Assembly: GCA_003280095.1 (NCBI GenBank)
Contig: QCGA01000004.1
Location: 151 to 64,150 of the forward strand
DNA length: 64,000 bases
From: Prochlorococcus sp. AG-363-O16
GTDB taxonomy: Bacteria; Cyanobacteriota; Cyanobacteriia; PCC-6307; Cyanobiaceae
Direction: 5' to 3'
Within the stretch, counting starts at the first letter, position 1; the number at the start of each line of letters is the position of its first letter. Positions 6,369 to 37,661 of this stretch are shown one piece after another. A program made the translations under genes and the position numbers. The notes beneath the pieces are model-generated. The model worked only from the letters and a program-made list of their open reading frames with translations. It made no database searches and was not told the DNA's origin.

Positions 6369-6479
6369 TTATTTTTCAAAGCCATATATTTTTATGGGTG
6401 TTAACTTGAATAATATCCTTTTCGAACTTTATTTTTATGTTATTATTTTAGATCTAATTAATGTTAGAGATTGTTTAAC

Positions 6480-7040
6480 CTATTTTTCGTGAATTTTTTC
6501 ACTCCGAACCTTAAGAAGGAGTTTCAATACTAACTCAGCATGATCTTGATATGTATAGGCTTCAGCTTCTTGGGGGCTTCCAAAATAGTTCAATGATTCC
6601 GATGAAACTGGCCAACCTAGTGGTTCCATTCCCTTTAGATTTTCATTGATATGTTGAAGTACATGAATATATTCGTGTGTTATTAATTTACATCTTACCA
6701 GTTGATTCATTGGCCTTGTCCCCAAGGTGAGTATGCCTAGTTGTCCGTGTAAAGCTTTATAAGTCGCGTCTTTGTTTGGCAATTCTGGTTCTCCAATAAA
6801 AGTTTTCACCCCTAGTTGATACCCCACTTTCATGATTTCGTCAGACAGCCATGGGTCATCAGTGCAACGTCTTTTTGCTGTTTGTTGTATAGAGTCAGAA
6901 TATTTTATGAGGTTAATTTTGGAATTCGAAGACTTAATCCTTTCTACATTTCTAGAACCGTTGCAACTGGTTGTTAAAACAATGGTTAGAGAGCTACTTA
7001 GGGTGAGGGCAAAAAAACATAAGATTTTAGAGCTAAACAT
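6480..7040 (-). CDS. putative lipoprotein with HExxH zinc-peptidase motif
   Basis: N-terminal signal peptide with lipobox-like LTTSC. HEYIH motif in ..LITHEYIHVLQH.. . Confidence 0.6.
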   Translation of the reverse strand: MFSSKILCFFALTLSSSLTIVLTTSCNGSRNVERIKSSNSKINLIKYSDSIQQTAKRRCTDDPWLSDEIMKVGYQLGVKTFIGEPELPNKDATYKALHGQLGILTLGTRPMNQLVRCKLITHEYIHVLQHINENLKGMEPLGWPVSSESLNYFGSPQEAEAYTYQDHAELVLKLLLKVRSEKIHEK

Positions 7041-13853: not shown

Positions 13854-15461
13854 TTATGGAAAAGTACTACCTTGACCTTTAGAAATAAGTCTATTAATCA
13901 ATCTTTTAATAGGCTTAAGTCCTCTATAAATATCTTTCCCTTTTGGTATTGCAGAGTATTCATTTATTAGTATTCTCTTCAGTACAACTTTTAATTCACT
14001 GGTAGGGATTGATTTGTATTTTAACTCGCCAATCCTCTTGTTTATTCCTTGATCACCACCAACACTTATGTGATAAGCTTCAACCATACTACCGTCAGCA
14101 TTTTTAGCTTTTGTTCCAGTAAGGCCTATAGCCCCCATATAGGCTTGACCACAACTATTTGGGCATCCAGTCCAATGAATTTTGAGTTCTTCAGGTAAGT
14201 GTATCTCTGAGTCCAATTCTTTGGAAATTTTGAGTGCTTGGTCCTTTGTGTTGGTCAGAGCAAAACTACAATATGTGTTACCTGTGCATGAGACAGTTCC
14301 AGCAGCAATTGGATTAGGATTTAAAGGAAAAGATTGTAATAAGGGGTCTAATTTCAATCTTTCTATTTTTTCGTCAGGTATATTAATCATTATTATATTT
14401 TGATCTTCGGTAAGACGGATTTCTCCAGAGCCATAATTGATGCTTGCCAAAGCTAAATCTTGGATATTCTCAGCACTTAGCCTCCCCACAGGGACATGAA
14501 GACCAGCGAATGAAAATCCTGATTGTTTTTGTTTGTGCAATCCCAATAATGAACGTGGTTTTTGAGAAAAATTCGAGCCTGGATCAGGACTTAGAGGGCC
14601 TAATTTCTCTTCCAGCATCTCTCGAAATTTTTCTACACCAACTTTGTTTAAGTAAAATCTAAATCTTCCTTTTGGCCGCTTGTCTCTTTCTCCATGGTCT
14701 CTCCAAATAGATATCACAACCCCTGTGAATTCTGTTATTGAATCTGGCTTAATCCATACGTTTAGTGGAATCGCATAATCATTAAGCTGGGAAGAGAGAA
14801 TTCCTCCAACCCAAACTCCAAAGCCTAGAATTCCATTTCTTTTAACTGGATGAAAAACAATGTCATTGTGAAGAAGGAAGTTGTCATATGAACCTGCTAC
14901 AGCAGTATTCCATTTTCTGGGTAAGTTCGAGAATTCTGGATTACCCTCTCCATCGTTTGTGAGGAATTTTTCTAATTTTTTTGTATATGGCCTTGTATCA
15001 ATAATTTCCGAATGATCGATTCCTGCTAGAGGGTTGCCAGTTACGTTTCTTGGATTATCAAATCCTGATTGAATTGTTCTAAGTCCTGCTTCATTTAAAC
15101 GGTTGAGTATTTCAGGAAGGTCACTAATAAGTACCCCACGAAGCTGAAGATTCTGTCTTGTAGTTATGTCGCAACTTCCATTCTCACCATATCTAGCGAC
15201 AATAGAACCAATAACTTTCAATTGGTGTGAGTTTAGAGCTCCGTTTGGAATTCTTAAACGCAACATGAATTTCCCTGGTGATTTTGGTCGCCAAAACATT
15301 CCATACCATTTAAGACGTAGTTCTAAATCAGATTTGTCAATATTTTCCCAACCTATTTTTGAGAAATCTTCAAGTTGCTTTCCCACCAAGAGTCCATCTT
15401 TTTCTGACTTTTGTTGCTCTATTTTATTTAGTTTTTTATCCTTCAGAAAATAATTATTCAT
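13854..15461 (-). CDS. nirA: ferredoxin-nitrite reductase
   Basis: 535 aa. Siroheme/4Fe-4S cysteine clusters CTGNTYCSFAL and GCPNSCGQ. Duplicated nitrite/sulfite reductase fold. Confidence 0.92.
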   Translation of the reverse strand: MNNYFLKDKKLNKIEQQKSEKDGLLVGKQLEDFSKIGWENIDKSDLELRLKWYGMFWRPKSPGKFMLRLRIPNGALNSHQLKVIGSIVARYGENGSCDITTRQNLQLRGVLISDLPEILNRLNEAGLRTIQSGFDNPRNVTGNPLAGIDHSEIIDTRPYTKKLEKFLTNDGEGNPEFSNLPRKWNTAVAGSYDNFLLHNDIVFHPVKRNGILGFGVWVGGILSSQLNDYAIPLNVWIKPDSITEFTGVVISIWRDHGERDKRPKGRFRFYLNKVGVEKFREMLEEKLGPLSPDPGSNFSQKPRSLLGLHKQKQSGFSFAGLHVPVGRLSAENIQDLALASINYGSGEIRLTEDQNIIMINIPDEKIERLKLDPLLQSFPLNPNPIAAGTVSCTGNTYCSFALTNTKDQALKISKELDSEIHLPEELKIHWTGCPNSCGQAYMGAIGLTGTKAKNADGSMVEAYHISVGGDQGINKRIGELKYKSIPTSELKVVLKRILINEYSAIPKGKDIYRGLKPIKRLINRLISKGQGSTFP

Positions 15462-19282: not shown

Positions 19283-19331
19283 ACTCGATCTGTTAGAAGA
19301 CAATAGATTTTTTTTCTCTTGCCCATTGACT

Positions 19332-19549
19332 AGGCAAAAAAAAAGACCCTTGCTAAGACGCGGGGCCTGGGTGATGGGGAATCTTTTTTCTAAGAGCAAA
19401 TCCCAATAAAAGCAACCCAAGTACTACTGGTGGTGTATTAACTTAAAATTAGGTAAAGGCAAATCTGTATCTAGTGTTATGGAAGGCATGGTTGCTTCAG
19501 ACTCTCATTAAAATCTCTACAGGTTGGGTGATGGGGTAATTGTTCGGCC
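19332..19549 (+). repeat. GGTGATGGGG-box module, copy A (two boxes: 19369-19378 and 19527-19536)
   Basis: It aligns along its length with copy B. Box 2 is flanked by the pairing arms GGTTG (19522-19526) and CGGCC (19545-19549). Confidence 0.75.
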
Positions 19550-19575
19550 TTTATTCCTTCTCTCCATAAATTGCT

Positions 19576-19977
19576 TTAGTCACTTTTTTTCTCTTTGTAC
19601 GCATGTCCTAAAAGTGGTTCAAGTCCAGTAACTCTTAAAGCTCCTACTCCTGTCGCCTCTAAGCGCACTAAAGGGGCAATACCATCTTCATAGGCTTGTT
19701 TCCACCTTGGGGCGCATAAACACCAGTGGTCACCTGGTCTTAGCCCTGAGAATTCATATTCAGGCATTGGTGTGGTCAGGTCATTGCCTTGTGCCTTGCT
19801 GTAAGTCAGAAAGGATTTCGTCATTACGCAACAGACAGTATGTTGTCCTAAATCTGTGGCGTCGGTTTTACAGAATCCATCCCTATACCATCCGGTCAAT
19901 GGCTCACAACTGCAAAGTTGTAGTGGCTCTCCTAATACGTTGAGAATGTCTGTTGATTTTGGGTTGCTTTTTGTCAT
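19576..19977 (-). CDS. conserved DUF2237-like protein
   Basis: ..NVLGEPLQLCSCEPLTGWYRDGFCKTD..GQHTVCCVMT..FL.YSKAQGNDLTTP..GLRPGDHWCLCAPRW.. matches my recollection of that family. Confidence 0.8.
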   Translation of the reverse strand: MTKSNPKSTDILNVLGEPLQLCSCEPLTGWYRDGFCKTDATDLGQHTVCCVMTKSFLTYSKAQGNDLTTPMPEYEFSGLRPGDHWCLCAPRWKQAYEDGIAPLVRLEATGVGALRVTGLEPLLGHAYKEKKSD

Positions 19978-20441
19978 GGACCTTTGAAGAGCGGTGATTC
20001 ATTCCTATTCGAATATAAATTAATTAATAGATGTTTTTTGGATCGTTTCAAGGATTGGTTTGGTTCCGTTCTTATATGTAGCCAAATTATCTTGGTAGAT
20101 AGGCATCCTTTCTGCATTTTAAGTGAATTTTTTGATTACACCTTTCTCTGGTTTTTTCTAATACTGCTTCTCGGTTAAGAGTATTGTTTATTGAATTTAT
20201 TTTAATTAAATTATCTTAGATGTTGGGTCGAAATATCCCTTATTTATTTATATTCTATTGACCGAATTCTCTTGTAAGAAAATTATTCAATAGAATCGAA
20301 TAACAAGTGTTTAATTGCTTAATAGCTTGAAAAAGAAAGTTTTACTTGACGGTAATATTGAAAATCTAATCACTATATATCTAGTAGATTTTGCCGAGTC
20401 AAAAATATATGCTATAAATATAGAACTAATCAAGTTTAAGC

Positions 20442-20597
20442 ATGATCAGTGAACCTCGGATTCAGGACTTAAAGCTAGAAGAGAAAGATTCTATTGATGA
20501 TTATTTTGAATGTGTGAATGAGTGTTCTCTTGATAGTCAAGGAGTTGAATGCGTAACTCAATGTATTGAAGTTCACCTTAAGGATGAGATGGAATAA
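20442..20597 (+). CDS. 51-aa acidic protein with twin CX3C motifs
   Basis: ATG at 20442 and TAA at 20595-20597. Motifs ECVNEC and ECVTQC. It falls below the track cut-off. Confidence 0.4.
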   Translation: MISEPRIQDLKLEEKDSIDDYFECVNECSLDSQGVECVTQCIEVHLKDEME

Positions 20598-20727
20598 AGA
20601 GATTGCCACGGCTATTTATTTGATCATTGCGGATTTTCCTTGGATTGATTTCTTTAATCCGTGCTCATATCTAGATGATTTTTGTACTGATCTAAGTCCT
20701 CCTTTAGTTCGATTCAATTCTGATTAA
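20584..20727 (+). CDS. 47-aa ORF overlapping the previous one by 14 nt
   Basis: ATG at 20584 and TAA at 20725-20727. Sequence MRWNKEIATAIYLIIADFPWIDFFNPCSYLDDFCTDLSPPLVRFNSD. Confidence 0.25.
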   Translation: MRWNKEIATAIYLIIADFPWIDFFNPCSYLDDFCTDLSPPLVRFNSD

Positions 20728-20921
20728 TTTCAAGAAAATAATATCAATACCTTGAAAACAATGAGAACCCTTTCCTTAATCTTTTCTGATTAGATTTGTA
20801 ATTAATATCTCTTCTGTATGTTTACTCTTGAATCGTCTCGTTTTAGATGAGAGGTTATGAGATATTCACGGTTCTGCGATCCGTCCTTTAGATTTATGTG
20901 GTTCAGTGGAGACTTTTCGGC

Positions 20922-21044
20922 ATGAGTGAAGAAGGAGGTGGAATGGTTCCAGGCCTTGTGGCCATTGCAGTATCTGTGGTTTTTGCAGCTGGTGTTGGTC
21001 TTCTTATACTTAAATTTGTTTCTTTTGACGTCCCTTCATTTTGA
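20922..21044 (+). CDS. 40-aa single-TM peptide
   Basis: ATG at 20922 and TGA at 21042-21044. Sequence MSEEGGGMVPGLVAIAVSVVFAAGVGLLILKFVSFDVPSF. The GAAGGAGG run within its first codons would suit a start at the internal Met8 instead. Confidence 0.35.
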   Translation: MSEEGGGMVPGLVAIAVSVVFAAGVGLLILKFVSFDVPSF

Positions 21045-21222
21045 TTAAAGGGCTTTAATTTCACTTCTCCATCAATTCAGGAGTGGTTTTTGGAGCGATG
21101 TAACACCTTTTTTAATTTAGGCCAGCATTTTCTATCCCTATGCTTGGCAAGAGGTGCATCAGCTTCTTTTTCCTTAATCTTTGAAGAATTATTTTCGGGA
21201 ATTTTACGTGAAATTTGTTCCT

Positions 21223-21603
21223 TTACCAGTCCCCATCAGTTAGCTTGGGCCGGGTTAAGGCAATGGTTAGCCCCCCAATTAATCCCAAATTCATAAAAAC
21301 AGCTTTTGGCTGGAATGGAAAGATATGGAAGATAATTGTGGTTGGGATGAGGAAGATGAGGAGGAGTGAGGCCCCGATCTTTTGATCTTTGCTAAAGATC
21401 AGCAGGGCTGATCCAGCAATTACACATGAAATTGCACAAAGCAATAGGAAGGCGGCTAGTGGCTCTGGGATCCCTCTACCGGCGATTGCTTCGACTACTG
21501 AAGAGAATTTAGTGATTTTGACTGGTATGGCAATTACAAATACTGCTGCCAAACAAATCCGACCTATCACATCAATTGATTTATGAAGAAGTGGGCGATG
21601 CAT
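21223..21603 (-). CDS. DoxX-family-like membrane protein
   Basis: 126 aa with four TM helices. The N-terminal pattern ..IGRICLAAVFVIAIPVKI.. is typical of DoxX-like proteins. Confidence 0.55.
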   Translation of the reverse strand: MHRPLLHKSIDVIGRICLAAVFVIAIPVKITKFSSVVEAIAGRGIPEPLAAFLLLCAISCVIAGSALLIFSKDQKIGASLLLIFLIPTTIIFHIFPFQPKAVFMNLGLIGGLTIALTRPKLTDGDW

Positions 21604-21971
21604 TAGAAGTGAGAATTATGACCAAATTTAGTCCAGCAAGGCTCGCTAGTTAATGAGGATGTCTAATTTTCTATACCTTGAAATTGCGATTTTTATTGGT
21701 TTGCGGTACTTATTTCTTTTGAAAGTTCTGATTTTTGGCTGCTTTATGATCTAATTCCCTCTTGGAAGAAGTCTTTGCATTGCTGCTTTATATCATTGCG
21801 TTTGATACTCATATGGTTGGGGAATGGGAAGAGATATATGAATTACTTCAATAAATCGATCTTTCTGGTGCCTTGGTTGTCGTGAACATACATACACTTT
21901 CTCTCTGCTTCGTGTTATGTGAACCATGTTTTGGATGAGGCTGGATATTGCCATATCTGATTTAATAGGAA

Positions 21972-22463
21972 ATGTTGATCATTGGATTCACCTTGATTTC
22001 TGATGTTGCTGCTAATGCTTTGGCGGCCTATGTTCATTACTTAAGTTTCATGCTTTGTTTTGGTGCGCTCGTATTTGAGCGTATTCGGATCAAAGCCGAT
22101 CCCAACCGGTCAGAAGCTATCGCAATCCTTGTGGCTGATGTTGTTTACGGTTTGGCTGGAATTGCACTTTTAGTTAGTGGGATACTAAGACTGATCTATT
22201 TCGGTCAAGGAGGAGGTTTCTATACTCAAAACCCTTTGTTCTGGGTAAAGATTGGTATATTTGTTGTAGTTGGTTTGCTATCACTTTATCCTACTATTAC
22301 ATATGTTTTATGGGCTATACCCTTGAGTAAGGGTGATTTGCCTCAGGTGACTAATCAGTTAGCTGAAAGGTTTAGATTGATCATTAATATTGAACTATTA
22401 GGTTTCGCTTCAATACCATTGTTCGCAGCTTTCATGGCTAGAGGAGTTGGTTTGCCTTCTTGA
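21972..22463 (+). CDS. conserved cyanobacterial membrane protein (DUF2214-like)
   Basis: 163 aa with 4-5 TM helices. Confidence 0.55.
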   Translation: MLIIGFTLISDVAANALAAYVHYLSFMLCFGALVFERIRIKADPNRSEAIAILVADVVYGLAGIALLVSGILRLIYFGQGGGFYTQNPLFWVKIGIFVVVGLLSLYPTITYVLWAIPLSKGDLPQVTNQLAERFRLIINIELLGFASIPLFAAFMARGVGLPS

Positions 22464-22607
22464 ATATAATTGATTTGTTTAATTTCTGATTATCCATAGA
22501 TTGAGGATTCTAGTTTCATATGACTATGGAAAATTAAAGTTCTTTCAAAGTATTTCTGTTCTTATTCGCTGTATTGCTTTTATTAAAGATTCCTCGATCG
22601 ATCTTTT

Positions 22608-22672
22608 TGATGCTTGATGCTTGATGCTTGATGCTTGATGCTTGATGCTTGATGCTTGATGCTTAATGCTTG
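22608..22672. repeat. heptanucleotide microsatellite (TGATGCT)x8 plus one degenerate unit
   Basis: Eight perfect units run from 22608 to 22663, followed by TAATGCT. The tract is intergenic. Confidence 0.95.
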
Positions 22673-22779
22673 TCAAAGTGCATTTGGCTTCTTTTATAGA
22701 GTTATTGTGTTGTAGATCAATTGATCTATTTTAAGAGGTTAATAGCATTACCTGGCAATTAATTATCAGCAAATAATAA

Positions 22780-23250
22780 ATGAAATTAGTTATGCAATGT
22801 AGTCATTGTGATAAATTTTGTACTTGTTTTCAAATACTCTTCGGAAAGCCATCTTTGCTTATGTCTGAGCTTCCATATCTAGTTGCCTTAGCTTTAATAG
22901 AGCAAGAAGGCATAAGGGCAATGCCTCTTGGTGGTAAGTCAATTAGGCATCCGATTACTAAAGACAGTGATCCTGGTGAATTAGGACAAACGCTTGCAAA
23001 AGAATTACTTCTTAGAGTCTTTCAGAGAAGTGAGGATGGACCCTTAAGAAGAGTAGAGGGGGATAGAAGTCTTTTATTGATTCAGGTTCAAATGGAAGCT
23101 ATGCAAGAAAGTATTCCTTTGATCAAGGCGGAATGGATAGCAACAGGCAATGGAGAAGCGTTTTTAGAGAAATTGGAAAAACTTTGTGATGGTGTATGGA
23201 GCTTAAATTTTACTAGGGATAATGGTATTCAGTTCTCAACTTTCCAATAA
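22780..23250 (+). CDS. hypothetical protein
   Basis: 156-aa ORF. The ATG at about 22861 (MSELPYLV..) is a plausible start. Confidence 0.45.
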   Translation: MKLVMQCSHCDKFCTCFQILFGKPSLLMSELPYLVALALIEQEGIRAMPLGGKSIRHPITKDSDPGELGQTLAKELLLRVFQRSEDGPLRRVEGDRSLLLIQVQMEAMQESIPLIKAEWIATGNGEAFLEKLEKLCDGVWSLNFTRDNGIQFSTFQ

Positions 23251-23479
23251 GTAACTATGGTTTCAGGAATTGTATTTTTTCGTAGAAACGATTATAAGAA
23301 CTTTCTTTGAGTTCAACTAACTAATTGGTTGCTGAAATTACAAGTGAACAGCATTTTTCAAACCTCTTATGATGGGATAAACCCGGCTTTGGAGGGAAGG
23401 TGACAAATCTCAAGATTTCTGATCAGTGATCTCGGTGTCTCCATAATGGATTTTGTGGTTGAAGTTTTGGATTACTTGA

Positions 23480-23731
23480 ATGACTGAAGATTTTTTTTCT
23501 AGACGCCTTAAGGGGAAAGAGCTTTTAGACTATGTTGAAACACACCTAGAAGAATTCCAAGGTGATGGAGATGCCCTTTGTCTTGCTGCAGGTTATGGGC
23601 AGGACAATGGACAGGGAACTACTAAATGCAACCTTTCTGAATTTGTTCGTGAGTTGGCTGAAGTTGCTGATCCCATTAAGTTAGAAGCGAGTGAGAAACA
23701 CGACGCTGAAGAAAGAGACCAAAAGCTTTAG
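23480..23731 (+). CDS. hypothetical acidic protein
   Basis: 83-aa ORF. Confidence 0.45.
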   Translation: MTEDFFSRRLKGKELLDYVETHLEEFQGDGDALCLAAGYGQDNGQGTTKCNLSEFVRELAEVADPIKLEASEKHDAEERDQKL

Positions 23732-23979
23732 TTGTTTTATTAAATTGCCATGACTAACTTATAGGTCTTGTAGATCTCTATTTCCATTCGCATACTGTGT
23801 CTTCTCTGATGGTTTAATCATGCTATTGATCTTTATCTATTAAACATATTTTTAACATTCAACTTGTTGGTTATGTTTCTATATGACTTTATGTATTCAA
23901 GAGTATTATGCTTATAATTCTACTAGCGTCATTATGATTTTTTTGAATTTTCAATAATCTATCTAATAAGGTTTTCAAT

Positions 23980-25365
23980 ATGAATACGGAAGAACAGGAA
24001 CAAAGGGCACGCGAATTAATTCAACAGGGAAAATTTCAAGATGCCGAATTAATTTATCGAACATTAGTTGCGTTAGGAACGAATAACTGTGTTTCTTATA
24101 GCAATCTTGCAGCCCTTCTTTGGAAGACTGGAAGGTATCGAGAAATGATAGATCTTCTTGAAAAATCTTTAGCAATTAATCCAAGATATTCAAAAGCTCA
24201 TCTCAATCTTGGGCTCGCCTTCCAGGCTGAAGGTGACCTTAAAGCTGCTATCACATCTTATTCTAAAGCTATAGAGTTTGAGCCAAAATATGCAGCAGCC
24301 TATAGCAACCTGGGATCTGCATACGTGGAAGTAGGGAGTTTTGATTTCGCAATAGATGCTTATAATAAAGCGATAGAGTTAAACCCTAACCATGAAGAAG
24401 CTCATGTCAATCTTGCGCAAGTTTTACTTCTTTTAGGGCACTATGAAAGAGGTTGGAAGGAATATGAGTGGAGATTGAAAGCTGGAAATAAGCGAGTCTT
24501 AAGTTTTGGGAATCTTAAGAGTTTAATAGATTCAAGATTGTCAGAAAAACGGAAAAAAATAACTGTATTTAGTGAACAGGGCTTGGGAGATAGCCTTCAA
24601 TTTTTACGTTATGTACCTTGTCTTTTTGAGAAGGGATTAGATGTTTCTTTGTGTGTTCAGACTAAGCTACATGATTTAGTTAAAGTTTCCAGGATCCACT
24701 CGAACCCTATGGATCCATCAGTTGTAAATAATGTTCCCAGTGACGAATTAATTCCTCTTCTTTCTTTGCCAAAAATATTAAATATTAGTAAGAAAAATCC
24801 ACTTACAACTTCAGCATATATATCAACAGATGATCAGTTGATATCTAAGTGGAGAGGTATTCTAGTTAAAGACAAAAGGCCCATTATTGCAATCAACTGG
24901 CAAGGGAATCCAAAGCATGAAAAGGCTTATTCTAGAGGTAGATCTTTACCTTTAGAGACCTTTTCTATTCTTGCGAAACAAACATCAATCAGGCTTCTTT
25001 CCTTGCAGAAAGGTTTTGGATCTGAACAATTGATAAATTGTTCATTTAGGGACCGTTTTGTTTCATGTCAGGAAGAGATAAGTCAAACATGGGACTTTCT
25101 TAATACAGCTGCAATAATTGCCAATTGTGATCTGGTGATTACTTGTGATACTGCTATGGCACATTTGTCGGGAGGGATGGGAAGGACCACTTGGACATTG
25201 CTGAAGAATGTGCCAGATTGGCGTTGGGGTAATGATAGTCAAATGGTATTTTGGTACCCATCAATGAGATTATTCCGTCAAAGAAAGAATGGAGATTGGC
25301 CTGAAGTTATGCAGAGGGTTTCTGAAAGTCTTCGGGAAAAGTTTACCTTGAACCTTTTAAGTTGA
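23980..25365 (+). CDS. TPR-repeat protein fused to a glycosyltransferase family 9 (heptosyltransferase)-like domain
   Basis: The N-terminus has about 5 TPR units (..AHLNLGLAFQAEGDLKAAI..YSKAIE..P..). The C-terminus carries ..EQGLGDSLQFLRYVP.. and ..CDLVITCDTAMAHLSGGMGRTTWTLL.. . Confidence 0.75.
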   Translation: MNTEEQEQRARELIQQGKFQDAELIYRTLVALGTNNCVSYSNLAALLWKTGRYREMIDLLEKSLAINPRYSKAHLNLGLAFQAEGDLKAAITSYSKAIEFEPKYAAAYSNLGSAYVEVGSFDFAIDAYNKAIELNPNHEEAHVNLAQVLLLLGHYERGWKEYEWRLKAGNKRVLSFGNLKSLIDSRLSEKRKKITVFSEQGLGDSLQFLRYVPCLFEKGLDVSLCVQTKLHDLVKVSRIHSNPMDPSVVNNVPSDELIPLLSLPKILNISKKNPLTTSAYISTDDQLISKWRGILVKDKRPIIAINWQGNPKHEKAYSRGRSLPLETFSILAKQTSIRLLSLQKGFGSEQLINCSFRDRFVSCQEEISQTWDFLNTAAIIANCDLVITCDTAMAHLSGGMGRTTWTLLKNVPDWRWGNDSQMVFWYPSMRLFRQRKNGDWPEVMQRVSESLREKFTLNLLS

Positions 25366-25490
25366 ATTGAATAATGGGTTGACTATATTCAAAATAGTTT
25401 TTTCTACTTATTAGATTATAATGTGGGTTGTTAAACTTACATTTCAAGTATTCCATTTGAGTATTTTATGGTTTTAGTTTAGGCATTTTG

Positions 25491-25534
25491 TCTGACACTA
25501 AAAAACCCTCACAAGAGGGTTTTTTAGTGTCAGA
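25491..25534. terminator. bidirectional intrinsic terminator with a 20-bp perfect stem
   Basis: TCTGACACTAAAAAACCCTC, loop ACAA, then GAGGGTTTTTTAGTGTCAGA. The GC core CCCTC/GAGGG is followed by a T-run on both strands. It lies between convergent genes. Confidence 0.8.
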
Positions 25535-25548
25535 AATTTAGTAAAGCC

Positions 25549-25722
25549 TTACTTGACGTAGCTAACACCTCTATAAGTAAGTTCGGAATTTACATTGCTT
25601 CGGGTTCTGGCTCTGCATGTGTTGTAGTGCTCTCGACGATAAGTGAGTTCAACACATTGTTGCTGCGCTTGAGCCTCTTTGTGCTGGACATAGTCATGTC
25701 CACGGTATAAAAGTGTAGTCAT
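25549..25722 (-). CDS. 57-aa YRG-repeat protein (DUF4278-like), candidate glutamine-riboswitch-controlled peptide
   Basis: ATG at 25722 and TAA at 25549-25551. Sequence MTTLLYRGHDYVQHKEAQAQQQCVELTYRREHYNTCRARTRSNVNSELTYRGVSYVK, with three L.YRG/R..Y repeats. It falls below the track cut-off. Confidence 0.6.
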   Translation of the reverse strand: MTTLLYRGHDYVQHKEAQAQQQCVELTYRREHYNTCRARTRSNVNSELTYRGVSYVK

Positions 25723-25740
25723 AATTCAGAGTCCGAAATT

Positions 25741-25804
25741 GGCCCAAGTCCCCGTTCCTTGGCTTGGGTCGAACTGCGCCTCGCCCATCAACGAGGTGAA
25801 CGCT
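25741..25804 (-). promoter_or_regulatory. glutamine riboswitch-like aptamer (glnA / Downstream-peptide type)
   Basis: Minus-strand RNA: AGCGUUCACCUCGUUGAUGGGCGAGGCGCAGUUCGACCCAAGCCAAGGAACGGGGACUUGGGCC. P1 is CGUUC/GAACG, the hairpin is CCUCG/CGAGG, and the pseudoknot helix is CCCAAG/CUUGGG. It ends 18 nt before the ATG of a short ORF. Confidence 0.65.
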
Positions 25805-25807
25805 TTG

Positions 25808-25821
25808 GTAGCCATTGCTAC
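25808..25821 (-). promoter_or_regulatory. perfect NtcA-type box GTA-N8-TAC beside the riboswitch
   Basis: GTAGCCATTGCTAC is palindromic. It lies 4 nt upstream of the 5' end of the aptamer. Confidence 0.5.
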
Positions 25822-26225
25822 AAAATCAGGTCTAGCACTGGTTGGCCGGCTTTTGCAAGACTTTTATAAAGAAAACAGGTTTTAGGTATTTGTTGATGAC
25901 TGCCCTTCTTAAAAAAAAGGTGGGGTGGGGGGAGTATTTTGAAGCCGAAGCTAGGTTTGCTAGTAATTGTCTCAACTTATAGAGCTATTTCGAAAAAAAA
26001 TTGGAAGATTGGGGTAGTTATCTTTTTGATGTGCCAGAAGTAGAAATATAGATAGGAAAGAGTTGATTCTGATGCCAATTAAACCCAAGAGGTTTTGGAT
26101 CCTTCCATATTTTAAGACTCAAACGATTAGACTTTCTTCTCTTGAGAACTATTCGTTAGTCAGAACGGATCAAAACATTTTCTAAGTACCAGAGCCCTCA
26201 ACAATTATTTAATCGCAAATCACAA

Positions 26226-26477
26226 ATGTTGAAGAGAGCAAAATCTCGAGGTTCCTCAAAGTTCCTTTCTGGAGAGACCAAAATCCGCAAGCGAGAGGTT
26301 TTCCCTGATGGGGATTGGTTAACTATTGACGATGATTTGGCCATGAGCGGTTGGGACACAGTTCAGAGAGAGGATATTCATGCTTGCTTAAGGAGAGGCA
26401 TGCCTCTGCCTTTTGCTGTTAGGCAAGTCGCGATCAAACTGGGTAGATGCCCTATTCGTTCGAAGTCATTTTTCTAG
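26226..26477 (+). CDS. hypothetical protein
   Basis: 83-aa ORF. Confidence 0.4.
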   Translation: MLKRAKSRGSSKFLSGETKIRKREVFPDGDWLTIDDDLAMSGWDTVQREDIHACLRRGMPLPFAVRQVAIKLGRCPIRSKSFF

Positions 26478-26572
26478 GGTTTGCTTTTGTCCAGCCTGCT
26501 GGCTCTTTGGTTAAGTGAGAATTCGAGAGTCAGCCTTTACCGGAAAATAACCTTGGTAACTATGGCTTCTCA

Positions 26573-26793
26573 AGGCAAGAAAAAAGACCCTTGCGAAATC
26601 CGCTGGGCCTTGGTGATGGGGTGACCTGTTTTTAAGGCAACTGATCACAAAATCAACCCCCACCATAAGTAGTGTTTGAACTTGAAGATAAGTAAAGCCA
26701 AATCTATATATGGTGTTACGAATACATGGGTAGCCCTTGACATTGATTATTATTTTCCACGTGGCCGGGTGATGGGGATCAGTCGGTCTGCCC
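26573..26793 (+). repeat. GGTGATGGGG-box module, copy B (two boxes: 26613-26622 and 26769-26778)
   Basis: It aligns with copy A. Box 1 is closed by GCCTT (26608-26612) and AAGGC (26635-26639). Box 2 is closed by GGCCG (26764-26768) and CGGTC (26785-26789). Confidence 0.8.
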
Positions 26794-26860
26794 AATGGGG
26801 GATATAGCCTTTAGATCCTGTCTTGAGGCTTCCTCCTGGTTCTTTATTGATCGAATGCCA

Positions 26861-27034
26861 TGAATCTTGGTTTACTTTTCCTTAATTCCATTTCTACAGG
26901 TGTAATAACCAAAGAGGAGATGGATTGGATTACTAGACATCAACGTGAGTTCTCAAGGATAGAAGAAGCTACAGCACTAAAACTTGGAAGGCTTTTAGAT
27001 AAGGGCTTGATCCATCTAGGCTGTCGAATTTGAG
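26861..27034 (+). CDS. 57-aa hypothetical protein (..EEMDWITRHQREFSRIEEATALKLGRLLDKGLIHLGCRI)
   Basis: ATG at 26861 and TGA at 27032-27034. It falls below the track cut-off. It starts 83 nt after box B2. Confidence 0.4.
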
Positions 27035-27102
27035 TATGAGCTCGATATCTCGAAGTCAATAGAGGTTGGATTTTTCAAGTCGGCTATAAATTTCCAAAGG
27101 AA

Positions 27103-27303
27103 CTAGGCCACTTTTTCCTTCTCTAGAGATCGGAGATAGCGTTTACGCTGCCCACTTCCTTCAATTTCAACCTGCCAGTTGCAGGTCAATCTTCGATGAG
27201 GTTTCTGAGTATTTAGAACTGATTGGAGCTTGGTGCGTTTTTTTGTTGGTTTATCCATGTGTCTTATTAAACACCATTGCTGAATTCCAGGGCCTAGAGC
27301 CAT
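27103..27303 (-). CDS. hypothetical basic small protein
   Basis: 66-aa track ORF. An internal start (MDKPTKKR..) is possible. Confidence 0.25.
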   Translation of the reverse strand: MALGPGIQQWCLIRHMDKPTKKRTKLQSVLNTQKPHRRLTCNWQVEIEGSGQRKRYLRSLEKEKVA

Positions 27304-27593
27304 TCAAGATTTCTTGAAAAAACCTTGAAAAAATAAAGCTTTCCCTTAGGCGTTTACACCTGCAGCTTCGTTCATTTAAATAGCTTTCAAATTATATATT
27401 TTTTAGATGTGCCCTCAAGATCGCTAATAATTGTTTAAAGAATCAATCTGACAACGCACCCCTACCTAGGAGTTTTTACTTTGATTATGGTTTATATAAA
27501 TGTTTGATAAATAATTTTTCAGATTCGTTTAATTACCAGGCAAAACAAGCTTTACTCTCTACTATTTTAATGAAAAGAATTTAAATTTTTGGT

Positions 27594-28175
27594 TTGATTG
27601 CTTTTTTTCTCTTTCTGATCATCTTCTTGGTTGTTCTTTTAGGGGTTGCAACCTGGCTTTTGATGACTAATAAAAGTTCAGAGGCAGTGGAGGTTAAAGA
27701 GCTCTTAGGGACTGTATGGAATAACCTGAAGGAGCTTTCAACCAATCTAATAAAGCTTTACGGTGCAATTCAGAGCTTTGTAAAGGAGTTGACGGACAAG
27801 TCAGAAGAGACTGAAGTCCTTTCAGAGACTCTTATAGGTAAGGATTCTGCAGATATTACCCAGCAAAAAAATGAACTTATAGCAGTTGAAGCTTCAGCGG
27901 GTTCTGATCAAGTAAAAGACTCTGCACCCGACAATAAAACTGAAGAAGTTTTACACGCATCAGAATCAATTCGAAAACAGGATTTTCCTTCGGGTATGGA
28001 ACCTGAAGAGAAAGAGGATTCTTTAGATCTTAACCAATCATTTGAAATCTCGGATTTTTCCGCTGAAAGCAGTGAAGCTGAAATTACTAGTCAATCTGAT
28101 TCACCTGCGGAACCCTTTAAGTCTTCAGATGTCAAAGAAAGTCAACAATCCGTTCCAGGAGAAGACAATTTCTAG
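27594..28175 (+). CDS. N-terminally anchored acidic Ser/Glu-rich protein
   Basis: TM helix IAFFLFLIIFLVVLLGVATWLLM followed by a low-complexity acidic tail. Confidence 0.5.
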   Translation: MIAFFLFLIIFLVVLLGVATWLLMTNKSSEAVEVKELLGTVWNNLKELSTNLIKLYGAIQSFVKELTDKSEETEVLSETLIGKDSADITQQKNELIAVEASAGSDQVKDSAPDNKTEEVLHASESIRKQDFPSGMEPEEKEDSLDLNQSFEISDFSAESSEAEITSQSDSPAEPFKSSDVKESQQSVPGEDNF

Positions 28176-28351
28176 CAATGAATTTAGAAGAGCTTTATTG
28201 AATGTACAAATAATTGGCTAAGTATATTAACTTTGTAATAGGTTAAGCCGGAGAAAAAAAGTTTTCTTACCTTGATTGATTTCTTAAGTTAGAAAAGATC
28301 TGAAGAGTATCTCCATCTAATTATTGAGTTGACATCAACAAACGATCTGCT

Positions 28352-28552
28352 GTGATAAGAAGATATGAAATCATTTGTAAAATGGCAAAAAAACACTCTG
28401 CATTTGATGATTTTGTTGATCACTGCTTTATTGACAAACATCCGATTTGCAATGAAAGGAGAGAAAGGAGAGGAGAATCAATAGACCTGATATCTTCACA
28501 AATTATTTCTGAGTTGGTCGAATGTAATTTCGAAGATTTGCCTCTAGCTTGA
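28352..28552 (+). CDS. hypothetical small protein
   Basis: 66-aa track ORF. An ATG (MAKKHS..) lies 30 nt in. Confidence 0.3.
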   Translation: MIRRYEIICKMAKKHSAFDDFVDHCFIDKHPICNERRERRGESIDLISSQIISELVECNFEDLPLA

Positions 28553-28746
28553 AGATCAAACACAATCCACTTTTTGTATCCTCTTTGTTTCTTTAGTGAA
28601 GGAGTAAAGGGAATCTAAGGTCAAAACTCCTTAAATTAGTTGCTTTTACTCTTGATTCCTAACGACTTACAAAAAAGGTACAAATGCTCTATTGATTTAC
28701 GGATAATTAAGTGTGATCTTGAAATTGTAAATTCTTTACTGATTAA

Positions 28747-28986
28747 ATGAATAGCTTTTGGAGCGCTTTCCTTTCAAGTTACCTTCTTGAACTAGGGCAA
28801 GACACTTCTAATGAACAGAGAGATTTGAATAAGACCACTGCCTGGAAAACTGTTGTTGGCTCCTTGGAAGAAGACGCAACAGTAGGAGAAACCATTTCTA
28901 AGATAGGGGTTAAAGAGTCTGAAAAAATATACTCAATTTCAAGTCCTCTTTCTGAAGAAGATGAAAAAATAGACCTTGCAGCCTAG
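28747..28986 (+). CDS. hypothetical small acidic protein
   Basis: 79-aa ORF. Confidence 0.35.
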   Translation: MNSFWSAFLSSYLLELGQDTSNEQRDLNKTTAWKTVVGSLEEDATVGETISKIGVKESEKIYSISSPLSEEDEKIDLAA

Positions 28987-29548
28987 CTAAAACCTGATCA
29001 GATTTTAAATTAGAGACTATTAGTTTCTCATTCTTTCTGGAAAAAATTATTCTATTTTTTCAGGCTTTTTGTTAACTTTTGTTTTGATATTGCTACTTTA
29101 AATACCCTAACGTTTATCTATTTATAGATACAAGAAATTTTTATGTCTAGAGTGTTTTTTTTTAATGTATTTTTGCTATAAAAGCCAAATAAATAAAAAT
29201 CTAATTTCACTTTTTTTGTTCTATTTAATTTTGGCTTTAGTATGGTGTTTCATGATCCCCTAATTGTATTTTTTAATTGGTGGATTGATTCTTGATGAGA
29301 CTTTATACGCTTAAGCAAGATTAGTAGAAAGAAATGAACGCATAGAGCTTCTCTTCACAGTCCTCCAAAGATTGAATATGAAATAACTATGAATATGGAT
29401 ATCGCGCTAATGGCGGCCGGAGCAAAATACTTTTTTGATTCAGTCTGATGAATGTTGGTTTGTTCTTAACTTTATTTAGGATTTTCCTATTTTTTGTGGC
29501 TGCTTTGGGAGTAATTCCATAAATAGTGTCTATGAACCGTACCTTGTG

Positions 29549-29637
29549 CCCTATATATAGTGGTTACTACTCATGACGAGTGTGGATGCTGACGTTAACT
29601 TTGGCTCGATGGTCGGGTGATGGGGGTCAGTCGGCCT
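29549..29637 (+). repeat. GGTGATGGGG-box element, copy C (one box: 29616-29625)
   Basis: It matches the second half of modules A and B (CTATATATAGTGGTTAC..CATG..). The box is closed by GGTCG (29611-29615) and CGGCC (29632-29636). Confidence 0.75.
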
Positions 29638-29705
29638 AAAATGAAAGGGCAACTCCATGGTGGATAACTAAGGAGTTCCTCTGAAATTCTTTAGGGGGTA
29701 GTGCA

Positions 29706-29813
29706 ATGCTAACTTTCGACCGACTCAGCCGTTCCGAAATCGTTCACGGAAGGGTCGCTATGGCAGCCTTTCTGGTGATTGCTTTGTTTGAATTAATCAA
29801 GTTACAGATGTAA
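29706..29813 (+). CDS. hli: 35-aa one-helix high-light-inducible protein (HLIP)
   Basis: ATG at 29706 and TAA at 29811-29813. SEIVHGRVAMAAFLVIALFE carries the ExxHGRxAM chlorophyll-binding motif of the CAB/ELIP/HLIP family. It falls below the track cut-off. Confidence 0.6.
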   Translation: MLTFDRLSRSEIVHGRVAMAAFLVIALFELIKLQM

Positions 29814-30074
29814 GGAAATATAGGCTTCACGGCTTTTCTCTGAAGCAAATCCCTCGGGTTTTGTAGGCCATTTAATTTAAGGTTTTCTTTTAAGACCAAA
29901 TTAGATCACCTTGACATGGAGATGGCTAGGTATAAAGGCCTAGGTTCGTTGCGATTTTTGGCCTAATAAACTGTTCCTCGGGCAATTAAATAAAGACCTT
30001 TAACTATTTTGCTCAGATGAATTCAGTCGCATGTAGGGTTCATGGCGTATTTACGCCTTCAGCTCTTAAAAGTT

Positions 30075-31169
30075 ATGCAGACGTATGGAAATCCAAACCT
30101 CACGTACCCGTGGTGGGTTGGTAATTCTGTAGTCACCAGCAAGTCAAGCCGATTCATTGGTTCGCATGTTGGTCATACAGGTTTGATTGCTTTCAATGCT
30201 GGTGCCATCACTCTTTTTGAGCTAGCACGCTTTGATCCTTCATTGCCCATGGGCCATCAGGGATTGATCTTTTTGCCTCATTTGGCTTCTATCGGAATTG
30301 GTTTCGACGAAGCTGGTGTCTGGACAGGTGTAGGAGTTGCCTTCATTGGTGTTTTCCACTTGATCTGTTCAATGGTTTATGCAGGTGCAGCACTTTTGCA
30401 TTCACTTGTGTTTAGTGAGGACACTCAGAACAGTTCAGGTCTATTTGCTGATGATCGCCCTGAGCACCGTCAAGCCGCTAGGTACAAGCTTGAATGGGAA
30501 AATCCAGACAACCAGACTTTCATTCTTGGACACCATTTACTTTTCTTTGGTGTAGCAAACATCTGGTTTGTTGAATGGGCAAGAGTTCACGGAATCTATG
30601 ACCCATCGATCGAGGCAGTAAGACAAGTTGCTTACAACCTCGACTTAACCCAAATTTGGAACCATCAGTTTGACTTCCTTGGCATTAGTAGCCTTGAGGA
30701 TGTTATGGGTGGTCATGCATTCTTAGCCTTTTTCCAAATAGGTGGTGGTGCATTCCATATCGCTACTAAGCAAATTGGTGAGTACACCGAGTTCAAGGGT
30801 TCAAATGTTCTTTCAGCAGAAGCAATCCTTTCTTGGTCACTTGCAGGCATAGGTTGGATGGCAATCATTGCTGCTTTCTGGTGCGCCACTAATACCACTG
30901 TTTATCCTGAGGCTTGGTACGGAGAGACTCTCCAGCTTAAGTTTGGGATTTCACCATATTGGATAGATACAGTTTCCATTACGGATGGACCTAGTGCTGC
31001 ATTTGGTCATACCAATCGTGCTTGGCTGACCAATGTTCACTATTACCTAGGGTTCTTCTTTATCCAAGGTCATCTGTGGCATGCTATCCGCGCTTTAGGT
31101 TTTGACTTTAAGCGTGTTGTTGGAGCAGTAAGGAACTTGGACAATGCATCAATCAAACTTCAAGATTGA
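30075..31169 (+). CDS. pcb: divinyl-chlorophyll a/b light-harvesting protein Pcb (CP43/IsiA family)
   Basis: MQTYGNPNLTYPWWVGNSVVTSKSSRFIGSHVGHTGLIAFNAGAITLFELARFDP.. is a canonical Pcb N-terminus. Six TM helices. The track ORF starts 33 nt earlier. Confidence 0.95.
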   Translation: MQTYGNPNLTYPWWVGNSVVTSKSSRFIGSHVGHTGLIAFNAGAITLFELARFDPSLPMGHQGLIFLPHLASIGIGFDEAGVWTGVGVAFIGVFHLICSMVYAGAALLHSLVFSEDTQNSSGLFADDRPEHRQAARYKLEWENPDNQTFILGHHLLFFGVANIWFVEWARVHGIYDPSIEAVRQVAYNLDLTQIWNHQFDFLGISSLEDVMGGHAFLAFFQIGGGAFHIATKQIGEYTEFKGSNVLSAEAILSWSLAGIGWMAIIAAFWCATNTTVYPEAWYGETLQLKFGISPYWIDTVSITDGPSAAFGHTNRAWLTNVHYYLGFFFIQGHLWHAIRALGFDFKRVVGAVRNLDNASIKLQD

Positions 31170-32016: not shown

Positions 32017-33012
32017 TCACTTTCCAATTCTTTCTATAGCAGCAAGTGATTCGCTACGGATATTTTCCCCTAATGGGACGAATCCCAGTTTGGATGCCTT
32101 GGCTTGGTATTGGTCACTAAGTAATGTAATTAAGGTTTCCTTGATGGCAGTGGTTTTGGTTCCATTGCCTGACTGATAGGCCAAGATCCAAGTGAGTGTG
32201 GCAATTGGATAAGCGTCTCTACCTTTTGGATTAGGGTTTGTCCCGGCCAGGTTGTTGTCTAATTTGATCCCATTTAGTGCCGCAGTGCCTGTTGTAGTAG
32301 AAGGTTTCAAAAATTCGCCAGAGAGATTTTGTAATGCAGCTGCTTTAATTTCGCCTTTTATATAGGACTGGTTTAAATAGCCAATGGCACCAGGAGTATT
32401 TCTAATAATCACAGCCACTCCAGCATTGCCTTTCCCTCCTACGCCTCTTGGCCAGCTAAGTGACTTGCCAGTCCCCAAGGTCCATTCCCTTGAGAAGGCT
32501 TGCATTGAATTGGTGAATGTTTTGGTGGTACCAGAGCCATCTGATCTGTATACCCAAGTGAGTTTCTGTGCAGAACAGCCCAGTTCTTTCCAGTTTTTTA
32601 TTTTCCCCATTGCGATCCTAACTGCCTCGGTTTGGGTCAATTTGAGTTCACAATTTGGTTTGTTGTAACCAAAGGCGATGGTGCCTCCAACCATAGGAAT
32701 CTGGATTAAGCCACGAGTAACTTTGGCAATATCTTTAGCTTTCATTGGGTCGTCTGATGCCCCGAAGTCTACGGTCTGGTCGATAAAGGCTTTGCGACCA
32801 GAACCAGAACCTATAGCTTGGTAGTTCACCTTAGGTCCACCGGACTTGGCTAGATCAGAGAACCAACGCGTATAGATATTTGCAGGGAAGGTTGCTCCAG
32901 CACCACTGAGGCGGAGACTAGAAGTTTTGCTTGAAGAGCTGCATGAGGCAGTAATACCTGCCCCAAACGTAAGGAGGGAAAATAGGACAAAGGCCTTTTT
33001 CGATAAGGACAT
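32017..33012 (-). CDS. pstS: phosphate ABC transporter substrate-binding protein
   Basis: Lipoprotein signal (..GITASC). LSGAGATFP and later PstS-type blocks. Confidence 0.92.
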   Translation of the reverse strand: MSLSKKAFVLFSLLTFGAGITASCSSSSKTSSLRLSGAGATFPANIYTRWFSDLAKSGGPKVNYQAIGSGSGRKAFIDQTVDFGASDDPMKAKDIAKVTRGLIQIPMVGGTIAFGYNKPNCELKLTQTEAVRIAMGKIKNWKELGCSAQKLTWVYRSDGSGTTKTFTNSMQAFSREWTLGTGKSLSWPRGVGGKGNAGVAVIIRNTPGAIGYLNQSYIKGEIKAAALQNLSGEFLKPSTTTGTAALNGIKLDNNLAGTNPNPKGRDAYPIATLTWILAYQSGNGTKTTAIKETLITLLSDQYQAKASKLGFVPLGENIRSESLAAIERIGK

Positions 33013-37589: not shown

Positions 37590-37661
37590 TGGGCGATACT
37601 GGAATCGAACCAGTGACTCCTACCGTGTCAAGGTAGTGCTCTACCTCTGAGCTAATCGCCC
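37590..37661 (-). tRNA. tRNA-Val (anticodon GAC)
   Basis: A full 72-nt cloverleaf was folded by hand: acceptor GGGCGAU/AUCGCCC, D stem GCUC/GAGC, anticodon stem CUACC/GGUAG with loop UUGACAC, and T arm ACUGG-UUCGAUU-CCAGU. CCA is not encoded. Confidence 0.93.

Follow-up and report, generated by a model that had tools for sequence, protein, structure and literature searches.

The stretch of Prochlorococcus sp. AG-363-O16 analyzed here raises the question of what is made from a DNA box that it carries five times, in identical form and always on the same strand. The stretch, called the window below, comprises 64 kb of contig QCGA01000004.1 with a G+C content of 39%, and the box, GGTGATGGGG, occurs on the + strand at positions 19370, 19527, 26612, 26768 and 29616 (window count); the expectation from shuffled sequences is 0.10, and a count of five was reached in 0/100 shuffles. 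A first-pass annotation had placed the five boxes within 1 nucleotide (nt) of these positions and had arranged them as two homologous two-box modules, A and B, and a one-box copy, C, corresponding to the second half of a module. This description is borne out: the alignment of modules A and B spans both in full, an nhmmer profile built on 63 relatives finds three matches in the window only, namely A, B and C, and the match to copy C covers the second half of the profile alone. The observation stands because the box count exceeds that of the shuffles, A and B align, and the profile recovers exactly A, B and C. It is a real finding and not ordinary repeat noise, nor is it a new class of structured RNA. 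Patterns detected in the comparison make it probable that a two-box module is a cassette of two divergent small RNA (sRNA) genes whose predicted products are mutually complementary, one read leftward from the - strand (L) and one read rightward from the + strand (R).

Relatives were fetched with a two-box pattern that demanded exact boxes at both sites, and three collections were scanned. Approximately 65 relatives were obtained from Prochlorococcus single-cell genomes, Synechococcus WH 8017 and marine metagenomes, and the family alignment consists of 63 non-identical copies. Among species-representative genomes, at least 12 Prochlorococcus single-cell genomes and Synechococcus sp. WH 8017 carry the cassette, while the marine metagenome scan yielded about 55 further copies. 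The first-pass annotation had called for a search for further copies elsewhere, and many marine picocyanobacterial genomes and metagenomes have them. The cassette is often multi-copy and lies within variable islands bearing hli, PTOX and phosphate genes. Other pattern matches arose by chance, most of them in proteins with glycine/aspartate repeats, and nhmmer found no diverged copies lacking exact boxes across ~340 kb of related loci. In IMG/VR a single contig, L004, carried the cassette, beside open reading frames (ORFs) that read by eye as PTOX-like and hli-like, and another stretch of this contig, at 1900-2250, is 95% identical to cyanophage P-SSM2. A phage origin of the cassette was rejected, as blastn found no match to it in cultured phage genomes (50,697 phage records) and IMG/VR held only L004. 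A viral scan for the hairpin alone returned only chance matches in high-GC contigs.

The order of elements is constant across the 63 aligned copies. Read on the box strand, there is first a run of A6-9 and a GC-rich hairpin, then box 1 at 2-3 nt past this hairpin, a T-rich stretch (TTTTCTAAG), CAACCCC, two related short motifs, a and b (CCATAnnTAGTG-like), a conserved block with ATGACA, GTGACA or TTGCGT, a TAnnnT hexamer, a hairpin around box 2, and finally a second GC-rich hairpin followed by T4-9. The two boxes are spaced 145-160 nt apart. Conservation extends no further than the left-hand A-run and the right-hand T-run, the flanks are unconserved, and neighboring genes vary between loci; the unit is therefore one of ~270-290 base pairs (bp) between two hairpins whose U-tails point outward. 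The aligned copies establish this anatomy, the strandedness of the structural elements, and the predicted R promoter and both predicted terminators.

At the left end the hairpin belongs to the - strand. In 29 diverse copies its outer stem is canonical on that strand in 174/174 alignment cells, 20 of which contain G-U or U-G and would turn into A.C mismatches if read from the + strand; a single stem position is GU in 14 copies, GC in 9 and AU in 6, and a U5-9 tail follows directly after the hairpin. These features predict a Rho-independent terminator functioning on the - strand only. The first-pass annotation had mentioned a weak - strand terminator at this end as a caveat, which was correct and turns out to be central. 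It is likely that a - strand RNA, L, ends here. L would run leftward through the middle of the module, and its copy of the box, UCCCCAUCACCC, lies 2-3 nt upstream of the terminator, where it would fall in a mostly unpaired A/U-rich stretch just 5' of the terminator hairpin. Within this box AUCACC has a mean unpaired probability of 0.72 and CCCC one of 0.37, with CCCC often pairing with an upstream G-run. Two helices, one joining the box to the upstream G-run and the other UUUUGAG/CUUAGAA, were drawable for L in some copies and were set aside, as RNAalifold gives support to neither. No solo L copy was seen, unlike the solo R-type genes described below.

Signals toward the right lie on the + strand. 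A TAnnnT hexamer is present 17-25 nt upstream of box 2 in 63/64 copies, in 22 forms that all keep T1, A2 and T6, against a background of 0.20 per such interval, and a -35-like ATGACA, GTGACA or TTGCGT lies 16-17 nt upstream of this predicted -10 element. The right end has covarying + strand hairpins that differ in sequence and are followed by T4-9 in nearly all members; in the window, copies A and C have a weak or atypical form of this predicted terminator. With its -10 and -35 elements and its right terminator, R therefore resembles a typical sRNA gene. Motif b (L029, L062, L104 and L112: CACACTATAAATAGTGTG; 26700-26720 in module B) is an imperfect palindrome just upstream of the -35 region of R, with arms that change together between subfamilies (ACACT/AGTGT, CACC/GGTG, CCA/TGG) and folding energies that show no strand preference (31 vs 24 copies). 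Possible roles are a binding site for a regulator or a segment of L.

The hairpin around box 2 covaries. On the + strand 89.8% of its cells are paired, and three pairs and 39 cells show changes on both sides, although independent covariation events are fewer than such cell counts because much of the change separates high-light from low-light subfamilies. None of 500 shuffles matched the paired fraction, the double-change cells or the covariation score, and 3/500 matched the count of three pairs. Sliding the partner by 1-3 columns lowers pairing to 22-44%. Columns 5-28 pair as AU in 13, GC in 12 and GU in 10, columns 7-26 as CG in 17, UA in 16 and UG in 3, and 28 G-U cells of the hairpin would be mismatched on the - strand. 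From a sigma-70-type promoter, R would start a few nt ahead of box 2, present GGGUGAUGGGGAUC in a 5' hairpin (5-bp outer stem, small internal loop, GAU/AUC inner stem and GGGG apical loop), and end at a strong terminator; its predicted length is ~60 nt (median 62), with an unpaired probability of ~1 for the apical GGGG. It is highly probable that R is a + strand sRNA gene or a leader.

Solo R-type genes also occur, namely copy C in the window and AGUGAU-GGGG-AUCRCU variants with terminators of their own in L062, L150 and L172. In these three loci (L062 at ~6410-6480, - strand) the variant has the same sequence, a perfect 6-bp stem with a GGGG loop, and ends in a GGGGCC...GGCCCC terminator; the gene in L062 is ~300 nt from a cassette and on the opposite strand. 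A terminator-ended element in L182 (~2040-2130, + strand) and L232 (- strand) consists of a tandem CACCUGGUGAUG(G/A)G repeat, then GCCCCCU...GAGGGGC and U7, and is perhaps also related to the box family.

The first-pass annotation had read each module differently, as one structured noncoding RNA of ~220 nt on the + strand with both boxes at the 5' side of hairpin loops. Every box is indeed on the + strand, and the claimed hairpins are genuine there for box 2 of A, box 2 of B and copy C (21, 42 and 37 bits with the hairpin covariance model), with covariation and G-U pairs both arguing for a + strand RNA and the predicted fold of the B hairpin containing the further inner stem, UGAU-GGGG-AUCA, that had been proposed for its loop. 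The claim that conservation is at the level of RNA and is noncoding also holds, as the longer ORFs read the boxes in frames that differ among subfamilies. A hairpin around box 1 is another matter. The pairing GCCUU/AAGGC can be drawn around the first box of module B and is not a feature of the family; all five flanking nt are pairable around box 1 in 7/63 copies, compared with 49/63 for box 2, and the covariance model does not recognize box-1 sites (8.8 bits for A1). Box 1 is thus not enclosed, the left hairpin and U-tail function on the - strand only, and a conserved -10 element lies between the boxes, just upstream of box 2. Folding energies agree with base-pair counts on strandedness. The better fold is on the - strand in 49 copies and on the + strand in 13 for the left hairpin, in 48 and 14 for the segment between the boxes, and in 48 and 11 for the motif-a segment, so that the left two thirds fold better on the - strand, compared with 0 and 63 for the box-2 hairpin (mean margin 6.6 kcal/mol). 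Whole-module folds are no better than those of shuffles. A single + strand RNA is accordingly very unlikely.

An alternative explanation could be that the cassette acts as DNA, its direct repeats serving a recombinase or DNA-binding protein or the whole being a miniature mobile element, with the hairpins forming in single-stranded DNA and copy C a one-box recombination product. This would account for the multi-copy occurrence in variable, island-like contexts among unrelated neighbors, the sharp boundaries, the 12-16 bp direct repeats flanking ~146 bp, the existence of a one-box copy, and the likeness of the two ends as inverted A-run and GC-stem sequences. It would not account for G-U asymmetries that are opposite at the two ends, which fit two RNAs and not one DNA strand, nor for a conserved -10 element and T-tailed terminators, which are transcription signals. 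Moreover, no integrase or transposase gene adjoins the window copies, and box spacing varies over 145-160 nt. We consider a DNA-level function quite unlikely, but mobility of the cassette by recombination is compatible with a divergent gene pair. Integron attC sites and IS200/IS605-type hairpins, considered for the same-strand hairpins, were set aside because inspection found no GTTRRRY-type core, gene orientations were mixed, and the ends were opposite in strand asymmetry.

If the cassette is a pair of divergent genes, L and R would be transcribed away from a central promoter region and end at outward-facing Rho-independent terminators. The boxes are direct repeats at the level of DNA and lie in oppositely transcribed parts, and predicted L and R are therefore complementary. 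R carries GGGUGAUGGGGA(UC) and L carries (GA)UCCCCAUCACCC; perfect complementarity extends over 12 nt in low-light and Synechococcus types and over 16 nt in the high-light type, in which both repeats read CTGGGTGATGGGGATC. RNA-RNA pairing, of L with R or with other RNAs bearing an R-type hairpin, is the best-supported mechanism suggested by this comparison. L and R could form an sRNA/anti-sRNA (sponge) pair in which each titrates the other; alternatively, L could act on RNAs with an R-type hairpin, such as the hli leader downstream of copy C. That pairing between L and R is the function is plausible, if not quite probable. From the alignment we infer that both RNAs would accumulate, where L would start, that L and R would pair in vivo, and what their targets may be. 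The L seed, CCCCAUCACC, has AUCACC in common with the 3' end of 16S rRNA, and on this basis L might act on GGUGAU(G)-type hairpins, e.g. that of the hli leader. A fuller proposal, that the cassette is an autonomous, horizontally shuffled unit of sRNA and anti-sRNA in which R is a decoy for L, or the reverse, and L acts on initiation or leader hairpins of GGUGAU(G) type, is doubtful at present.

Divergent transcripts with 12-16 nt of complementarity also bring to mind a type I toxin-antitoxin locus, in which L would be the mRNA of a micro-peptide and R its divergent antisense regulator. Loci such as tisB/istR-1, zorO/orzO and shoB/ohsC are divergently encoded type I toxin-antitoxin systems, and the cassette resembles loci of the tisB/istR-1 type in having divergent small transcripts whose sole complementarity is short and derives from a direct DNA repeat. 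A - strand ORF of 10-11 codons (MVGVA..KNS, MGVDFKLNFS, MQGLDF..) is found in ~60% of copies; it opens at an AUG within motif a and closes at a conserved UAG or UAA that precedes the box by 12-13 nt. Peptides MVGVA..KNS, MGVDFKLNFS and MQGLDFKLNFA are read, for example, in L004, L029, L062 and L150, with the corresponding region of module B around 26650-26690, and the distance from G-run to stop stays in frame even where the start codon is missing. However, the start codon is missing in window modules A and B, L090, L143, L168, L209 and others, most substitutions change the amino acid, and non-conservatively, a membrane toxin would be longer and more hydrophobic than this peptide, and the frames of longer ORFs differ between subfamilies. 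Unlike type I toxin-antitoxin loci, the cassette has no conserved toxin ORF, and the L micro-ORF has neither a conserved start nor purifying selection. To judge from these patterns, the micro-ORF is probably not translated, and a toxin-antitoxin function is very unlikely indeed.

Positions of the predicted features in the window are given in the table. Module B is a complete cassette, and the predicted fold of its R hairpin shows an outer stem of 5 bp (GGCCG/CGGUC) and an inner stem of 4 bp (UGAU/AUCA), with GGGG in the apical loop. In module A the R hairpin is degenerate, with an enlarged loop, and the hairpin with its UUAUU tail was flagged as terminator-like; A has no separate R terminator because a gene with the Pfam domain DUF2237 (- strand) ends at 19576, 27 nt off. 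L-A looks decayed because the G-run upstream of its box has been lost.

Table. Modules, boxes and predicted transcription signals in the window
Feature	Position	Strand	Basis or remarks
Module A	19330-19564		nhmmer E = 1.6e-37
Predicted L-A terminator	19336-19367	-	hairpin 19345-19367 (GGCCC...GGGUC), U9 tail 19336-19344; canonical family stem
Box A1, reads CCCCAUCACC in L-A	19370-19379	-	2 nt upstream of terminator hairpin
Putative L-A body	19380-19500	-	nhmmer match; family - strand folding preference
R-A predicted -10, TAAAAT	19509-19514	+	family TAnnnT position
R-A hairpin, GGUUG...CGGCC	19522-19549	+	box A2 at 19527-19536; covariance model 21.2 bits
Module B	26560-26830		nhmmer E = 8.9e-52
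Predicted L-B terminator	26580-26609	-	hairpin 26586-26609, U6 tail 26580-26585
Box B1, reads CCCCAUCACC in L-B	26612-26621	-	
Putative L-B body	26622-26740	-	A/U-rich stretch, G-run (GGGGGUUGAUUUU), motif a, possibly motif b
R-B predicted -10, TATTAT	26748-26753	+	14 nt upstream of box B2
R-B hairpin	26763-26788	+	box B2 at 26768-26777; covariance model 42.2 bits, covariation, predicted fold
R-B terminator-like long hairpin and U-rich tail UUCUUUAUUG	26792-26849	+	hairpin to 26839; predicted fold
Copy C	29548-29642		nhmmer E = 7.7e-8; profile positions 160-253, second half only
Copy C predicted promoter	29573-29601	+	-35 ATGACG 29573-29578, 17-nt spacer, -10 TAACTT 29596-29601; family geometry
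Copy C hairpin, GGUCG/CGGCC	29611-29636	+	box C at 29616-29625; covariance model 37.4 bits; solo R-type
Two extra hairpins after copy C	29651-29677, 29678-29697	+	predicted fold
hli gene, 35 codons	29706-29813	+	translation; Pfam Chloroa_b-bind E = 4.6e-6

Copy C suggests yet another possibility, that R is a cis-acting leader or attenuator whose hairpin and terminator control a downstream + strand gene such as hli. Copy C lies 70 nt upstream of the hli ORF and has no strong terminator, and the second of the two extra hairpins after it, CCUCUGAAA-UUC-UUUAGGGGG, sequesters a Shine-Dalgarno-like AGGGGG located 8-10 nt before the hli start at 29706. Masking of AGGGGG in this modeled hairpin suggests translational control of the mini-hli gene. 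Likewise, a 57-codon + strand ORF follows module B within ~12 nt, and a 70-codon ORF follows copies of high-light type by ~75 nt. As an explanation for the family this is nevertheless unlikely, since in many loci (e.g. window A, L029, L062 and L112) what follows is a gene on the other strand or one far away, downstream genes are mutually unrelated, and the terminators are strong and constitutive-looking with no alternative antiterminator pairing seen. For copy C itself, the R-type hairpin probably does belong to the hli leader (29604-29705), and this leader is therefore the one concrete candidate for an L target in the window.

Several points weigh against the cassette being a pair of sRNA genes. 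Both RNAs are predictions from sequence comparison. Within L, RNAalifold supports the terminator and finds no consensus fold for the rest, and whole-module energies, which tell against a single RNA, give no more support to a pair. The apparent invariance of the boxes across the family is partly ascertainment, because the retrieval patterns required two exact boxes and held both fixed. Window copy A is degenerate, with a weak R hairpin and the R terminator missing. A further point is the L promoter: no conserved canonical - strand promoter lies within the cassette, and - strand TAnnnT occurs at chance level. Since the flanks are unconserved, transcription of L would have to begin within the cassette or enter it from its surroundings, and the L start would depend on a TAnnnT firing in reverse or on read-through from beyond the unit. 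The only candidate available within, and the most economical one, is the mirror image of the + strand -10 elements, as TAnnnT in mirror image still offers the opposite strand the A and the T that are critical in a -10 element. Bidirectional promoters of this mirrored TAnnnT type are known in bacteria. If the mirror image fires leftward, L may start near motif b or the R promoter and be 120-190 nt long.

None of the RNAs with which the cassette was compared proved to be the same element. The first-pass annotation had called for a check against Rfam, and no Rfam 15 family was found on the cassette at any threshold tried: A, B and C gave no match at the gathering threshold or at E up to 10, with the best chance matches at E >1, and related cassettes gave none to Rfam 15 models including Yfr1, Cyano-1/Yfr2, Cyano-2 and the glutamine riboswitches. 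A repeat called PRE1, which we take to have been described from Prochlorococcus, was not confirmed, and the tycheposon preprint has no such repeat or sRNA. A literature search for the box motif in either orientation found nothing relevant, with an earlier listing in transcriptome catalogues possible, and the motif does not occur in those supplements of Steglich 2008, Lott 2020 and Hou 2016 that could be searched.

The closest functional analogue is the group Yfr1, Yfr2 (Cyano-1) and Yfr10, whose complementary pyrimidine- and purine-rich motifs have led to the proposal of crosstalk (PMC2518516, PMC6778093). Like Yfr1 and Yfr2, the predicted RNAs come from marine picocyanobacteria, are short and end at terminators, and are often encoded in several copies and in islands, and a pyrimidine-rich motif exposed on one partner (ACUCCUCACAC in Yfr1, CCCCAUCACC in L) is complementary to a purine-rich loop motif on the other (Yfr2; GGUGAUGGGG in R). 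The motif sequence differs, however, no Yfr1 or Cyano-1 match falls on the cassette, and the predicted cassette partners stand back to back in one bounded unit. Genes of these families were found as neighbors: Cyano-1 (Yfr2-family) genes are beside the cassette in L228 (1286-1350, + strand), L090 (754-821, - strand) and L093 (226-290, + strand), and Cyano-2 is ~60 nt away in L174 (1-125, + strand), all four sRNA neighbors being within ~35-150 nt. With such neighbors and no model match, the cassette appears to live in sRNA gene clusters and yet be distinct.

Cyano-2 (RF01702) is presumably the same RNA as Yfr103. Yfr103 measures 290-328 nt, has seven paralogues in Synechococcus CC9605, and is very abundant and multi-copy in marine Synechococcus and low-light Prochlorococcus (Hou 2016, PMC5069720). 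It shares its host range and multi-copy state with the cassette and has an imperfect palindrome before its -10 element, much as motif b precedes the R promoter, but it is longer than the cassette RNAs, and the Cyano-2 model matches the cassette in no locus. Yfr8/Yfr9 and Yfr6/Yfr14 of Prochlorococcus MED4 are island-encoded pairs of opposite-strand noncoding RNAs with an overlap of ~225 nt (Steglich 2008, PMC2518516), and their total span of ~290 nt is similar to that of the cassette, likewise a predicted opposite-strand island pair. Identity with Yfr8/Yfr9 was rejected, as neither the window nor any of the fetched loci contains the sequences of their primers for rapid amplification of cDNA ends, even with 4 mismatches allowed. 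Other primers in Table S7 of the same study (Steglich 2008, PMC2518516) gave no convincing match; a weak resemblance to IG0129r2 was dismissed, this being the 3' untranslated region of PMM0127 and unrelated.

Other features of the window were recorded in passing. There are six more boxes with one mismatch, again on the + strand, that by context are not module copies. One, at 23561, is inside an ORF at 23480-23731, and another, near 4377 (+ strand; GGGGATGGGG), is in a coding sequence of glycine/aspartate-rich repeats (..DGGADILYGGGGGNT..) that resemble calcium-binding repeats of RTX type. ORFs named by eye are nirA (13854-15461), pcb (30042-31169) and pstS (32017-33012). Between modules A and B there is a Glutamine-II riboswitch aptamer (25743-25805, - strand, 69.7 bits), with a 57-codon DUF4278 ORF (25549-25722, - strand) directly downstream; the pairing of this riboswitch with a DUF4278-type peptide is known. 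A tRNA-Val (GAC) gene lies at 37590-37661 (- strand), ~8 kb from copy C, and tRNA genes are common points of island integration in Prochlorococcus.

Regulation in Prochlorococcus depends largely on small RNAs, protein regulators being very few, and to our knowledge only Yfr1 and Yfr2 are widely common to marine picocyanobacteria. As judged from its relatives, the cassette is most likely a previously uncurated divergent pair of sRNA genes, portable and widespread in these organisms. The gain at present is a precise annotation, with strands, promoter, terminators and a candidate target leader. If both RNAs are made and pair with each other, picocyanobacteria would have in the cassette a second case of built-in crosstalk between sRNAs, this one portable, and the cassette would be an obvious candidate for a new Rfam family. 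If L acts on leaders of hli type, gain or loss of a ~280-bp cassette would rewire the expression of light-stress genes in islands.

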